In this document: positions 57,103 to 61,252 of the stretch, piece after piece
Layout: each line of letters begins with the position of its first letter
Position numbering within the stretch: position 1 is the first letter of the stretch
From: Escherichia coli
GTDB taxonomy: Bacteria > Pseudomonadota > Gammaproteobacteria > Enterobacterales > Enterobacteriaceae
NCBI RefSeq assembly: GCF_003018255.1
Contig: NZ_CP027440.1
DNA length: 64,000 nt
Strand: one strand, 5' to 3'
Translations under genes and position numbers: made by a program
The notes under the pieces: generated by a model
What the model saw: only the letters and a program-made list of their open reading frames with translations
Told to the model about the DNA's origin: nothing
Databases searched by the model: none

Positions 57103-57842
57103 TATTTGCCCCCCATGTTGCCGGGCAGACGAACTTTACGTTCAACCAGCGTCATCACCAGCATGATAAAAGCGTTAATCAATACATACGCCAGCGTGAT
57201 GGCGGTAAACGACTCCCAGGCGTGGGCCGAGTAATCGAGCAATTTACCCGCCTGCGCCGCCATATCCACCAGACCGATAGTCGAGGCGATGGCGGAGTTT
57301 TTCACCAGGTTCATCATCTCTGAGGTCATCGGCGGGACGATAACGCGATAAGCATTAGGCAGCAGTACGTAGCGGTAAGCCTGCGGTAGCGTCAGACCCA
57401 TCGCCAGCGCGGCATTTTTTTGCCCACGCGGCAGCGACTGAATAGCGGCGCGTACCTGTTCGCAAACACGGGCGGCGGTAAACAGCCCCAGGCAGAGCAT
57501 GGATGAAAGGAAAAACTGAATATTGGGATCCAGCTCTGCCTTAAACCACATGCCGATTTTCTCTGGCAGCAGCTCCGGGATCACCAGGTACCAGGTAAAG
57601 AATTGCACAATCAACGGCACGTTGCGGAACAGTTCGACATACAACGTACCCAGACCGGAGAGAAAACGGTTTGGAACGGTACGTAAAATGCCGAAAAATG
57701 AACCGACGAGGAAAGCGATAATCCAGGCGCAGATCGACAAAGCGATCGTCACCTGAAAACCACTCCAGATCCAACCAAGATAGGTGGTGTTGCCGAACGG
57801 GGCTTGTTGTAAAAAAATACCCCAGTTCCAGTCTATAGACAT
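57102..57842 (-). CDS. gltJ: Glutamate/aspartate ABC transporter permease
   Basis: 246-aa membrane ORF; 1-nt overlap with gltK. Confidence 0.94.
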
Positions 57843-57855
57843 AAATCTACTCCAG

Positions 57856-58011
57856 AAAAAAGAGGGTAGCAGCGTTAACTGCTACCCTCGAAGATTGTTA
57901 CCCAGCGTATTGCGGTTTTCAGGCCCGATGGGGAACGACCACCAGGCGTATAGTCTGTCCGTGCTACGTAACAATCGAGAGGGCTGGAATTTCCGCCCCT
58001 GGTTCTTGTAA
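57856..58011 (-). ncRNA. sroC: SroC-like sRNA derived from the gltI-gltJ spacer
   Basis: 169-nt gltI-gltJ spacer ends, on the minus strand, in an 11-bp GC stem (57862-57872 / 57879-57889) followed by a U6 run; SroC is known to be processed from this spacer; 5' end not determinable here. Confidence 0.5.
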
Positions 58012-58920
58012 TTAGTTCAGTGCCTTGTCATTCGGTTCTTTGAACAGTGCTTTCATTTCGTCTGACAGTTCGAAATTCATGTTCAGGTTTTTCGGCGGAA
58101 TTGGATTTTTGAACCACTTATCAAACCATTTTTCCGCTTCACCGGAGGTCTGCACCTGAGCGATGGTATCATCCATCAGCTTTTTGAACTGCGGATCGTC
58201 TTTACGCAACATGCAACCATAGGCTTCCTGAGACTGCGGCTTGCCGACGATTTCCCAGTTGTCTGGTTTCTTCGCTTTCGCACGTTCACCGGCCAGCAGA
58301 GCATCATCCATCATAAAGGCAACGGCACGACCGCTTTCCAGGGTACGGAAAGAGTCACCGTGATCTTTGGCGCTGATGATGCGCATATTCATTTTTTGCT
58401 CTTCATTCAGTTTGTTGAGCAAAACTTCAGAGGTGGTGCCGGAAGTGACGACTACGGCTTTGCCTTTCAGGTCGGCAAAATCTTTGATATCGCCGCCCTT
58501 TTTGGTCAGCAGGCGCGTACCGACCACGAAAATAGTGTCAGAGAAAGCCGCCTGTTTTTGGCGTTCGGCATTGTTGGTGGTAGAACCGCATTCAAAATCG
58601 AAAGTGCCGTTTTGCAGCAGTGGAATACGGTTTTGTGAGGTGATCGGAATCAATTTCACCTGTAAGTCTGGTTTGTTGAGTTTCTTTTTCACTGCTTCAA
58701 CAATGGCGTTGGAGTAATCCTGCGAGTAGCCCACCACTTTTTGCTGATTGTCGTAATAAGAGAAAGGTACTGAAGATTCACGGTGACCGACGACAATCAC
58801 GCCGTTTTTGGCGATTTTGTCCAGCGTACTGCCTGCTGCCGGGGCGGCGTCATCTGCCTGTGCCAGTCCTGCGGAAAGCGCCAGGGCCAGGATTGCTGTG
58901 GCAGGTTTACGTAATTGCAT
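58012..58920 (-). CDS. gltI: Periplasmic glutamate/aspartate binding protein
   Basis: 302-aa product from MQLRKPATAILALALSAGLAQA (signal peptide); track ORF extends 25 codons upstream through the 5' UTR. Confidence 0.94.
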   Translation of the reverse strand: MQLRKPATAILALALSAGLAQADDAAPAAGSTLDKIAKNGVIVVGHRESSVPFSYYDNQQKVVGYSQDYSNAIVEAVKKKLNKPDLQVKLIPITSQNRIPLLQNGTFDFECGSTTNNAERQKQAAFSDTIFVVGTRLLTKKGGDIKDFADLKGKAVVVTSGTTSEVLLNKLNEEQKMNMRIISAKDHGDSFRTLESGRAVAFMMDDALLAGERAKAKKPDNWEIVGKPQSQEAYGCMLRKDDPQFKKLMDDTIAQVQTSGEAEKWFDKWFKNPIPPKNLNMNFELSDEMKALFKEPNDKALN

Positions 58921-58962
58921 ATCCAACTCCTTTATCTTCTGCGTTAAGAACGCATGGATACC

Positions 58963-58986
58963 CGTTGTGAGTGTTTGTGTTGTTAT
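58963..58986 (-). promoter_or_regulatory. C/A-rich element in the gltI 5' UTR, the type of site bound by GcvB sRNA
   Basis: Minus-strand sequence AUAACAACACAAACACUCACAACG lies ~45-65 nt upstream of the gltI start; gltI is a documented GcvB target. Confidence 0.5.
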
Positions 58987-59374
58987 CATCTGCAACTTTA
59001 TTGTGCAGTGTTGTGCTTGTTAGGTAACATTTAGTTTGGCTAAATGTAAAGATATTGCTGTTTTATTGTTTGTTTTTGCGAGATGCGCCGCACCATTCCG
59101 AAGCAAAATTCTTAAATCGCACCTTTTTGGTGCTACCGCTGATTTGTGGTGGTGCAACCCGGTTGCGTCGCGGCTGATTTCATTGCTTACACAGTAAATA
59201 AAGCAACTTACATGCCAAAAAATACTTATAGGTGAATTAATTACGATTGTAATGTTAGGCTGAAATAGTCATATTTCGGACAGGGTTATCTTTTCGGCAT
59301 GGGACGTTTGCCGGGATGATAACTGCACACGGGAAAAATGCTTTTTACCTGTCTTTTCAAGGAAGAATCACCTT

Positions 59375-61252
59375 ATGTCTGCATCTTCGGTTAAGCCGTT
59401 AAATGTTCAATTACCCGCAATAACCCTTATCCTTTTTGCGCTCTGTGTTGGGATATTTTGTTACCTCGCACAATGGATGAGTTATGAAGAAGTCGATCAA
59501 TCCGCACTTATCCATCTCGGTGCTAACGTTGCTTCTCTCACGTTGTCGGGTGAATCCTGGCGCTTATTGAGCAGTGTCTTTCTGCACAGCAGTGTTTCTC
59601 ATTTGCTGATGAATATGTTTGCACTCCTGGTGGTGGGGGGAGCGGTGGAACGTATTCTGGGGAAATGGCGACTCCTGATTATCTTGTTATTCTCCGGCAT
59701 CTTTGGTGGGCTGATCAGCGCCTGTTATGCGTTACGCGAAAGTGAGCAGATAGTCATCAGCGTTGGGGCATCCGGGGCAATTATGGGAATAGCGGGCGCT
59801 GCGATAGCAACACAGCTTTCTTCAGGTGCGGGTACACACCATAAAAACCAGCGGCGAGTATTTTCTCTGTTGGGTATGGTGGCGCTGACACTGTTGTATG
59901 GTGCCCGGCAAGCAGGAATAGATAACGCTTGCCACATTGGCGGCCTGATTGCGGGGGGCGCGTTGGGTTGGCTGAGTGCGCGTTTAGTTGGGCAAAATCG
60001 GCTCGTTACGGAAGGCGGGATTATTGTTGCGGTCACTCTTCTTCTGACCGGGACTATCTGGTTTGTGCAGCAGCAGATTGATGAATCAGTTTTACAGGTC
60101 AGGCAAAGCCTGCGTGAAGCGTTTTATCCGCAGGAGATTGAACAAGAGCGACGACAAAAAAAGCAGCAGTTAGTGGAGGAGCGCAACGCCCTCAGGGAAA
60201 CATTATCCGCTCCGGTAAGTCGTGAGCAGGCCAGTGGTGATTTACTCGCTGAGATTGCCGATATCCATGATATGGCGATCAGTCGGGATGGTAATACGTT
60301 GTATGCCGCAATTGAAAACACCAACAGCATTGTTGTTTTCGACCTCGGACAAAAGAAAATCCTGCATACCTTTACAGCGCCCATAGCGAAAGAAAAGTCA
60401 GTCAAACATTGTGGTGGCTGTAAAGATCAGGGCGTCAGATCGCTGGCATTAAGCCTGGATGAAAAGTTGATTTATGCGACTTCATTTGAAGCGAATGCAG
60501 TATCGGTCATTAACGTGGCGACGGGGGAGATTATTCAGTCGATTACCACCGGCGCCCATCCTGACAGCCTTATCCTCTCGCGTGATGGCACAAAAGCCTG
60601 GGTGATGAATCGCACCAGTAATAGTGTGTCAGCCATTGATCTGGTGACTTATCAGCATGTGACGGATATCCCGCTGGAGAAATACGACGGGACGGGGACG
60701 AGCGGTAAACCAGGCGCCTGGGTTATGGCACTTTCCCCGGATGAAAAAACATTGTTGATACCCGGTATGGTCAGAGGCGACATTGTACGCATCAATACCA
60801 TCACGCATCAGAAAGAAGACTTTCCCACAGGTGATGCGCGTGGTATCGTTTCTGCGATGGGATTCCGACCAAAAAATGGCGAGATTATTTTTGCCGATAG
60901 CCAGGGGATTTCACGTATAAGCGTAGGGGATCAACAAGCCAGCATTATGACGCAATGGTGTAGCAGGAGCGTTTATTCCGTTGAGGGTATTAGCCCGGAC
61001 GGTCAATATTTAGCGTTGGTGTCATATGGCCTGCAAGGTTATGTCATCCTGCTCAATATTAATGCCGGGCAGATTATTGGCGTTTATCCTGCCAGCTACG
61101 TTAATCACCTTCGTTTTTCAGCGGATGGTAGAAAGATATTTGTTATGGCGAAGAACAGGTTAATCCAAATGGACAGGACGCGCTCGCTTGATCCGCAGGC
61201 AATTATTCGGCATCCCCAATATGGCGATGTGGCTTGTATCCCTGAACCGTAA
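59375..61252 (+). CDS. Rhomboid-family intramembrane serine protease (seven predicted TM segments) fused to a C-terminal ~7-bladed YVTN-type beta-propeller
   Basis: 625-aa ORF with AAGGAAG SD ~10 nt upstream; rhomboid signatures WR (62-63), H71-x4-H76-x3-N80, GASGA with Ser133 (nt 59771-59773), H187 in CHIGGLIAGG (nt 59933-59935), seventh hydrophobic segment ~211-230; charged linker, then repeated ~40-aa blade-like segments. Confidence 0.85.
   Translation: MSASSVKPLNVQLPAITLILFALCVGIFCYLAQWMSYEEVDQSALIHLGANVASLTLSGESWRLLSSVFLHSSVSHLLMNMFALLVVGGAVERILGKWRLLIILLFSGIFGGLISACYALRESEQIVISVGASGAIMGIAGAAIATQLSSGAGTHHKNQRRVFSLLGMVALTLLYGARQAGIDNACHIGGLIAGGALGWLSARLVGQNRLVTEGGIIVAVTLLLTGTIWFVQQQIDESVLQVRQSLREAFYPQEIEQERRQKKQQLVEERNALRETLSAPVSREQASGDLLAEIADIHDMAISRDGNTLYAAIENTNSIVVFDLGQKKILHTFTAPIAKEKSVKHCGGCKDQGVRSLALSLDEKLIYATSFEANAVSVINVATGEIIQSITTGAHPDSLILSRDGTKAWVMNRTSNSVSAIDLVTYQHVTDIPLEKYDGTGTSGKPGAWVMALSPDEKTLLIPGMVRGDIVRINTITHQKEDFPTGDARGIVSAMGFRPKNGEIIFADSQGISRISVGDQQASIMTQWCSRSVYSVEGISPDGQYLALVSYGLQGYVILLNINAGQIIGVYPASYVNHLRFSADGRKIFVMAKNRLIQMDRTRSLDPQAIIRHPQYGDVACIPEP

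Follow-up and report, generated by a model that had tools for sequence, protein, structure and literature searches.

Is gltI of Escherichia coli flanked by both of the RNA elements that tie it to the GcvB-SroC circuit? The question was raised by a 64,000-nucleotide (nt) stretch of E. coli DNA (contig NZ_CP027440.1 of RefSeq assembly GCF_003018255.1), called the window below, in which a first-pass annotation had placed both partners of the circuit on either side of the gene. The SroC sponge was indeed found downstream, in the gltI-gltJ spacer, and a probable GcvB target site upstream, in the gltI 5' untranslated region (UTR), but gcvB itself does not lie within the window. The window very probably contains the native E. 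coli gltI-sroC-gltJKL locus with both published RNA elements of the GcvB/SroC feed-forward loop. The observation is thus confirmed and its interpretation supported with minor corrections; the features of the locus are already known from Salmonella and E. coli. The GcvB-gltI-SroC loop is a textbook case of an mRNA-derived sponge and all elements match the published description, which leaves little weight as a discovery. The practical value is one of annotation. The present analysis covers the sequences and how far they complement GcvB, their folding, conservation and covariation, and where gltI starts. The K-12 GcvB sequence was used throughout as the proxy partner, and it is a fair proxy for the window strain because 5389 of 5425 E. 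coli genomes carry a gcvB with at least 99% identity to that of K-12. Unless another strand is named, features lie on the minus strand, and negative positions are counted from the gltI start codon.

SroC, a small RNA (sRNA) of 163 nt, was located at 57854..58016, on the same strand as the operon. The covariance model RF00369 of Rfam matched it over model positions 1-163 of 163 with 172.6 bits (gathering score 45, E = 2.3e-37). It starts 2 nt ahead of the gltI stop codon and finishes just past a U-run; it covers the whole spacer together with the last 5 nt of gltI. The earlier claim that the spacer ends in the 3' end of SroC is therefore borne out by a full-length match, with the terminator representing only the last fifth of the sRNA, and sroC should be annotated over the entire spacer. 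The alignment to K-12 sroC that the first-pass annotation had proposed as a check was run, and the window copy is identical to gene b4763 at 162 of 163 bases, with the same boundaries. The sole difference, A75G (window 57942; G in the window, A in K-12), turns an A-U pair of stem-loop 2 (SL2) into G-U; the Rfam consensus has G here. A match to Rfam sbrA (25.1 bits against a gathering score of 45) was rejected, as it consists of the terminator hairpin alone.

The minimum free energy (MFE) fold of SroC has -65.7 kcal/mol, with z = -6.0 relative to dinucleotide shuffles. Two sites on SroC that contact GcvB, of 7 and 8 nt and 14 nt apart, were previously mapped by probing (Miyakoshi et al. 2015, PMC4474525), and both were recovered here. 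BS1 (UCGUUCC, SroC nt 79-85, 57932..57938) occupies the apical loop of SL2 and is an exact 7-nt complement of GcvB nt 13-19 in SL1. BS2 (GGACAGAC, SroC nt 57-64, 57953..57960) lies in an internal bulge and is an exact 8-nt Watson-Crick complement of GcvB nt 156-163 (R3/SL4). The gap between the two is 14 nt, as published. The window copy therefore resembles the published SroC (RF00369; K-12 b4763; Salmonella, PMC4474525) in locus, 163-nt length, fold, both contact sites with their spacing, and terminator.

The spacer had also been said to end in a strong terminator-like hairpin followed by a U-run. This Rho-independent terminator of gltI/SroC is located at 57889-57856 and reads GAGGGUAGCAG-UUAA-CGCUGCUACCCUC followed by UUUUUU; position 57856, where the first-pass annotation began its region, is the final U of the run. 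According to the in silico terminator scan and the fold, its stem comprises 12 bp, of which 7 are G-C pairs; the loop is UUAA, the tail U6 and the energy -22.7 kcal/mol. The ribosome-binding site of gltJ (GGAG at 57853-57850, with the ATG at 57842-57840; feature 57840..57853, from the sequence and the gltJ annotation) begins 3 nt past the U-run, and expression of gltJKL therefore requires read-through of the terminator.

Conservation of SroC was assessed in a species-representative genome collection searched with a 17-nt seed from the SroC core. The search returned 63 loci, of which 58 belong to Enterobacteriaceae; the other 5, in non-enteric genomes and without GltI in the vicinity, match the 17-mer by chance and were dropped. 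An alignment of 57 enterobacterial orthologs and the window (58 sequences) was scored on the MFE structure of the window. Paired cells made up 90.5%, in comparison to 39-52% when the 3' partners were slid by 1-3 columns, and double-sided changes were found in 166 cells, as opposed to 57 +/- 8 in shuffles. In the SL2 stem compensatory changes occurred at 6 of 9 pairs, and the BS1 loop (GGUCGUUCCCC) above it is invariant in 56 of the 58 sequences, the exceptions being two Siccibacter with a U to C change. The terminator core GGGUAGC/GCUACCC and the U-run are likewise conserved in orthologs. In Escherichia about 9 nt are inserted in the terminator (57862-57889, alignment columns 138-168), which results in a 12-bp stem versus about 7 bp in most other genera; Kluyvera carries a different insertion at the same position.

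Some lineages diverge at SroC. In Siccibacter colletis and S. turicensis (L010, L042) the 3' third of SroC, terminator included, is replaced by unrelated sequence and the BS1 loop reads GGCCGUUCC. SroC of Siccibacter may be truncated or altered, as described for Yersinia (PMC4474525). In four other loci, those of Kosakonia sp. S29 (L017), Phytobacter diazotrophicus (L044), Citrobacter braakii (L021) and Intestinirhabdus alba (L032), the gltI stop and the SroC core are 103-173 nt apart rather than the usual 42-53 nt, and therefore an insertion probably lies at or just before the 5' end (processing site) of SroC.

On the other side of gltI, the C/A-rich tract quoted by the first-pass annotation is present exactly as written, AUAACAACACAAACACUCACAACG, at 58986-58963 on the minus strand (-66..-43 from the AUG). 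Its function as the GcvB R1 target site and a translational enhancer is taken from Salmonella experiments (PMC4474525, PMC3879156) and the E. coli interactome (PMC9299463). C or A occupies 21 of its 24 bases; such richness is not rare, as it is reached at 16 loci in the window on either strand, and what sets the tract apart is its complementarity to the R1 region of GcvB. Pairing of R1 with the tract had been suggested as an in silico check, and it was carried out with 41-nt tiles over both strands of the window (25,584 tiles) against K-12 GcvB nt 59-95. The two tiles over the tract took ranks 1 and 2, at -38.2 and -35.7 kcal/mol, while the background had a mean of -16.2 and a standard deviation of 4.2. 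About 30 pairs are predicted between the tract and GcvB nt 61-95. The tract is thus the best R1 partner in the window and stands at the position of the Salmonella site, in agreement with the statement that GcvB base-pairs with sites of this kind. These R1-only tiles replaced an RNAduplex comparison of the 140-nt leader with full-length GcvB, which was discarded: it yielded meaningless whole-molecule duplexes, among which the gltI leader was unremarkable (764 of 1826 tiles equal or better). In the MFE fold of the leader the tract has a mean predicted unpaired probability of 0.8, compared to 0.55 for the whole leader.

Two predicted hairpins flank the tract. H1 (CUGCA...UGCAG, 58990..59008, from the MFE fold) is directly 5' of it, and a hairpin in this position is predicted in nearly all orthologs, with stem sequences that differ in Enterobacter, Kluyvera and Raoultella. 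H2 (58933..58960, from the fold), between the tract and the Shine-Dalgarno sequence, has an inner stem UGCGUU/AACGCA and an outer stem UAUC/GAUA, and shows compensatory changes across genera (GCGUU/AACGC, GCGUC/GGCGC, GCAUC/GAUGC, GCGCC/GGCGC). In the leader alignment (45 orthologs, including S. enterica diarizonae) the tract is kept in place in 44 of the 45, between the same flanks and with its 3' edge at -41..-44. Its length is genus-specific: it is 7 nt shorter in Salmonella and some Citrobacter, and longer in Raoultella. The R1 duplex is predicted at -24 to -38 kcal/mol in every ortholog but Intestinirhabdus. The leader of Intestinirhabdus alba (L032) has no C/A tract; it reads AUAAUCCUUCCUUACAACGG and its R1 duplex reaches -21 kcal/mol, while SroC is kept.

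The site in the window can be compared with that of Salmonella, which PMC3879156, citing Sharma 2007, describes as experimentally defined and about 45 nt upstream of the AUG. The results of Sharma 2007 are given here as relayed by PMC4474525, PMC3879156 and PMC7534054. Direct verification of the R1-gltI site belongs to Salmonella and comprises repression dependent on GcvB and Hfq that is lost on mutation of the site and regained with a compensatory mutation. The two sites share the gene, a 3' edge that precedes the AUG by about 43-45 nt, the flanking hairpins, a AUAACAACA...UCACAA core and the R1 partner. They differ in that the Escherichia tract is 7 nt longer (an extra C-AAACAC), and the Escherichia duplex is predicted at -38.2 kcal/mol, the strongest of all orthologs, versus -31.3 for S. 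enterica diarizonae. The status of the site differs as well: directly verified in Salmonella, it is classed as 'conserved' in E. coli (PMC9299463).

Within E. coli the tract region varies. Position 58988 (-68 from the ATG), which falls on the 5' edge of the R1 duplex, is U in the window and C in K-12. The exact 45-nt segment of the window around the tract is found in 653 of 5420 genomes and is therefore a minority form.

From published experiments in Salmonella and K-12 we infer the dependence on Hfq, the processing by RNase E, the regulatory outcomes and the points at which transcription starts. By analogy with those experiments, the G/U-rich R1 region of GcvB would pair, aided by Hfq, with the tract, which is predicted to be single-stranded. 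Such pairing would mask the translational enhancer, block binding of the 30S subunit and lower gltI translation, and would also expose the gltI mRNA to decay by RNase E. The leaky Rho-independent terminator in the spacer would end most transcripts, and an RNase E cut 2 nt before the gltI stop (5'-end-dependent and guided by Hfq) would free the 163-nt SroC. SroC would then pair with GcvB, BS1 with SL1 and BS2 with R3, and trigger degradation of GcvB by RNase E; the loss of GcvB would free gltI itself, along with the other members of the GcvB regulon, from repression. The tract and SroC touch different parts of GcvB: R1 in one case, SL1 (nt 13-19) and R3/SL4 (nt 156-163) in the other. The published contacts of SroC on GcvB are the same SL1 and R3 (PMC4474525, PMC9299463).

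All features of the locus agree with the mechanism in the literature. The leaky terminator model of the gltI-gltJ spacer was put forward in PMC4474525, and a gltI-sroC transcript of about 1200 nt has been reported alongside the read-through gltIJKL mRNA (PMC4474525, PMC11347164). SroC is known as a discrete, Hfq-bound species with a 5'-monophosphate, processed by RNase E and shortening the half-life of GcvB, in Salmonella and in E. coli K-12, O157 and O111 (PMC4474525, PMC11347164, PMC9731577). In the 3' UTR of gltI in K-12, the principal RNase E site coincides exactly with the SroC 5' end (PMC11347164), and deletion of sroC in Salmonella raised GcvB's half-life from 1.7 to >15 min. The E. coli interactomes, obtained by RNA interaction by ligation and sequencing (RIL-seq), crosslinking, ligation and sequencing of hybrids (CLASH) and MS2 affinity purification with RNA sequencing (MAPS), place gltI among the R1 targets and describe sroC as a sponge acting at SL1/R3; 67,138 GcvB-SroC chimeras were counted in stationary phase (PMC9299463). 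The classification of the R1-gltI pairing as conserved in E. coli draws on the same three methods (PMC9299463).

Several points weigh against this reading. Complementarity of SroC to GcvB over all 7-mers is only mildly enriched (6 observed, 1.9 expected, p ~0.04), and because the search seed included the BS2 region, conservation there does not count as independent evidence. The R1 duplex energies are inflated, as they ignore intramolecular structure and allow bulges, and the next-best tile in the window, inside lnt, reaches -35.4 kcal/mol, a modest margin. In K-12, compensatory-mutation tests at the gltI 5' UTR site were reported to be inconclusive (PMC11347164). For the window strain itself, a discrete SroC species, the transcription start sites and GcvB-dependent regulation are expected by extension from the relatives named above.

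Other explanations can be proposed for each of the two elements. The tract could be solely a cis-acting translational enhancer, an ACA/CA-repeat that recruits ribosomes, with the R1 complementarity a by-product of composition without regulatory consequence. CA/ACA motifs do raise translation by themselves (PMC3879156), the 16 equally C/A-rich loci show how common this composition is, and the inconclusive K-12 mutations (PMC11347164) would fit. However, of the 25,584 tiles it is the tract that pairs best with R1, E. coli studies have reported MAPS enrichment as well as GcvB-gltI chimeras (PMC9299463), an RNase E-dependent decrease of gltI in K-12 is confined to gcvB+ strains (PMC11347164), and the Salmonella C/A element confers GcvB control when transplanted (PMC3879156). 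The roles of enhancer and target can also coexist, and an enhancer without a target role is quite unlikely. Even less probable is that the spacer acts as a mere intra-operon attenuator which sets an excess of GltI over GltJKL and leaves a stable 3' fragment without a trans role in the window strain. The placement of the terminator 3 nt before the gltJ ribosome-binding site agrees with attenuation, an excess of the binding protein is typical of ATP-binding cassette (ABC) transporter operons, and the terminator has been called leaky (PMC4474525). An attenuator, however, needs the terminator alone, whereas the 130 nt upstream of it fold at z = -6, covary and keep an invariant loop complementary to GcvB SL1; in addition, the E. 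coli homologues of SroC and GcvB were functional in a two-plasmid assay (PMC4474525). Attenuation is probably real but comes in addition to the sponge role.

The remaining alternative concerns the leader itself, as the gltI frame is open from a TTG at 58995, 25 codons upstream of the ATG at 58920. The mechanical list of open reading frames (ORFs) accordingly contains a 327-aa ORF at 58995..58012, and if this TTG were the true start, the product would have 327 amino acids (aa) and the supposed UTR would be coding. This has next to no probability. The coding sequence of gltI, a periplasmic glutamate/aspartate-binding protein, is annotated at 58920..58012 (stop codon 58014-58012) with 302 aa in a RefSeq genome that is 100% identical. 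This protein of 302 aa scores 666.7 bits (cut-off 375) against NCBIfam NF008063 (glutamate/aspartate ABC transporter substrate-binding protein), from 1 to 302 of 302, and has 3 amino-acid substitutions relative to K-12. A Shine-Dalgarno sequence, AAGGAG (58927..58932), precedes the ATG at 58920 by 6 nt; it is invariant in orthologs as AAGGAGT, and MQLRK starts the signal peptide in every one of them. The TTG falls in the 3' arm of hairpin H1, and the indels between ortholog leaders are not multiples of three, for example the 7 nt by which the E. coli tract exceeds that of Salmonella. Because AAGGAG before the ATG is invariant and the upstream indels break the frame between genera, the longer ORF is an artefact, as the first-pass annotation had already supposed, and gltI should be called at 302 aa.

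A further possibility concerns the quantitative effect of the two expansions specific to Escherichia. These could in principle tune the loop differently from Salmonella, through titration or destabilisation of GcvB by the leader and through a shifted ratio of SroC to gltJKL, although this proposal is speculative and rather unlikely. If it were true, the additional 7 nt of the tract would allow a near-continuous duplex of about 30 bp over all of R1, and the gltI leader might titrate or destabilise GcvB in E. coli strains free of IS5. The stronger 12-bp terminator stem (versus about 7 bp) might in turn shift the ratio between SroC and gltJKL read-through. Both effects would depart from the result in Salmonella, where deletion of the tract left the half-life of GcvB unchanged.

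Upstream of the leader, the operon is known to be transcribed from both sigma70 and sigma54 promoters (Miyakoshi et al. 2022, PMC9731577), and gltIJKL is a known NtrC/sigma54 operon (PMC4987338, PMC4066584, PMC9731577). A sigma54-type element, TGGCAT-GTAAG-TTGCT, was detected at 59202..59217 (about -297..-282 from the ATG) as a candidate distal promoter, in a pattern match that has 2 mismatches. This pattern is not enriched over the window (186 matches, 232 expected). TGGCAY-N5-TTGCW is nevertheless found at -289..-307 in all 43 orthologous leaders that extend that far, with N5 variable, and the site at -297 is credible because it is conserved across species; the pattern match alone means little. 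For the proximal sigma70-type promoter, whose existence is taken from PMC9731577, a candidate -35-like hexamer TTTACA lies at 59045..59050, in a highly conserved block of the ortholog alignment; the hexamer occurs at -122..-134 in 45 of 45 orthologous leaders and the window. A consensus sigma70 scan of 57700-59450 detected no canonical promoter. CTGCAC...TTGCAG at -90..-70 was considered as a sigma54 promoter and rejected: its spacing is 2 nt too long, it lacks GG, and hairpin H1 fits better. In the window, the conserved sigma70-like (-130) and sigma54-like (-297) elements are upstream of a tract predicted to be unpaired.

The promoter region is also where the window departs from the reference strain. 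In K-12 MG1655, gltI, sroC and gltJKL are collinear with the window and about 97.5% identical. K-12, however, carries IS5D (L001, 4852-6046), with a CTAA target duplication, at the site corresponding to window 59024-59021 (-103..-100), and the window has no IS5. In K-12 the element separates the conserved promoter block from the gltI leader, at about 100 nt upstream of the gene. A 201-nt query across the IS5 site was covered to at least 80% in 5070 of 5423 E. coli genomes, so the arrangement of the K-12 reference is the unusual one: in about 93% of complete E. coli genomes, that of the window among them, the native promoter region is still contiguous with gltI. Since of the two strains only K-12 has IS5 upstream of gltI, K-12 is an imperfect reference for the window strain, in which, without IS5, the native sigma70-like and sigma54-like elements adjoin gltI. 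According to PMC9731577, the insertion makes SroC less inducible by nitrogen limitation in K-12. Both the IS5 difference and the promoter elements at gltI are already published.

The source of the window is the E. coli chromosome. Of 5426 complete E. coli genomes, 5423 contain the 1.6 kb around gltI-SroC, and several RefSeq genomes match this stretch at 100% identity. The genes are ordered lnt, a 625-aa rhomboid-family gene, gltI, gltJ, gltK, gltL and rihA, all on the minus strand except the 625-aa gene. E. coli strain 104 (locus L003) is identical to window 57700-59300. In this strain (L003, 8696-9601) rihA is followed directly by ybeL and leuS, whereas in K-12 hscC adjoins rihA. The K-12 gene block between rihA and ybeL appears to be absent from the lineage of strain 104, in whose genome the arrangement was read. 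The 625-aa gene (59375-61252, plus strand) bears the annotation of a rhomboid-family intramembrane serine protease. Among 5426 complete E. coli genomes, 3237 carry it, with identities of 90-100%; K-12 lacks it. Its product combines an N-terminal rhomboid domain with C-terminal beta-propeller repeats of the YVTN type.

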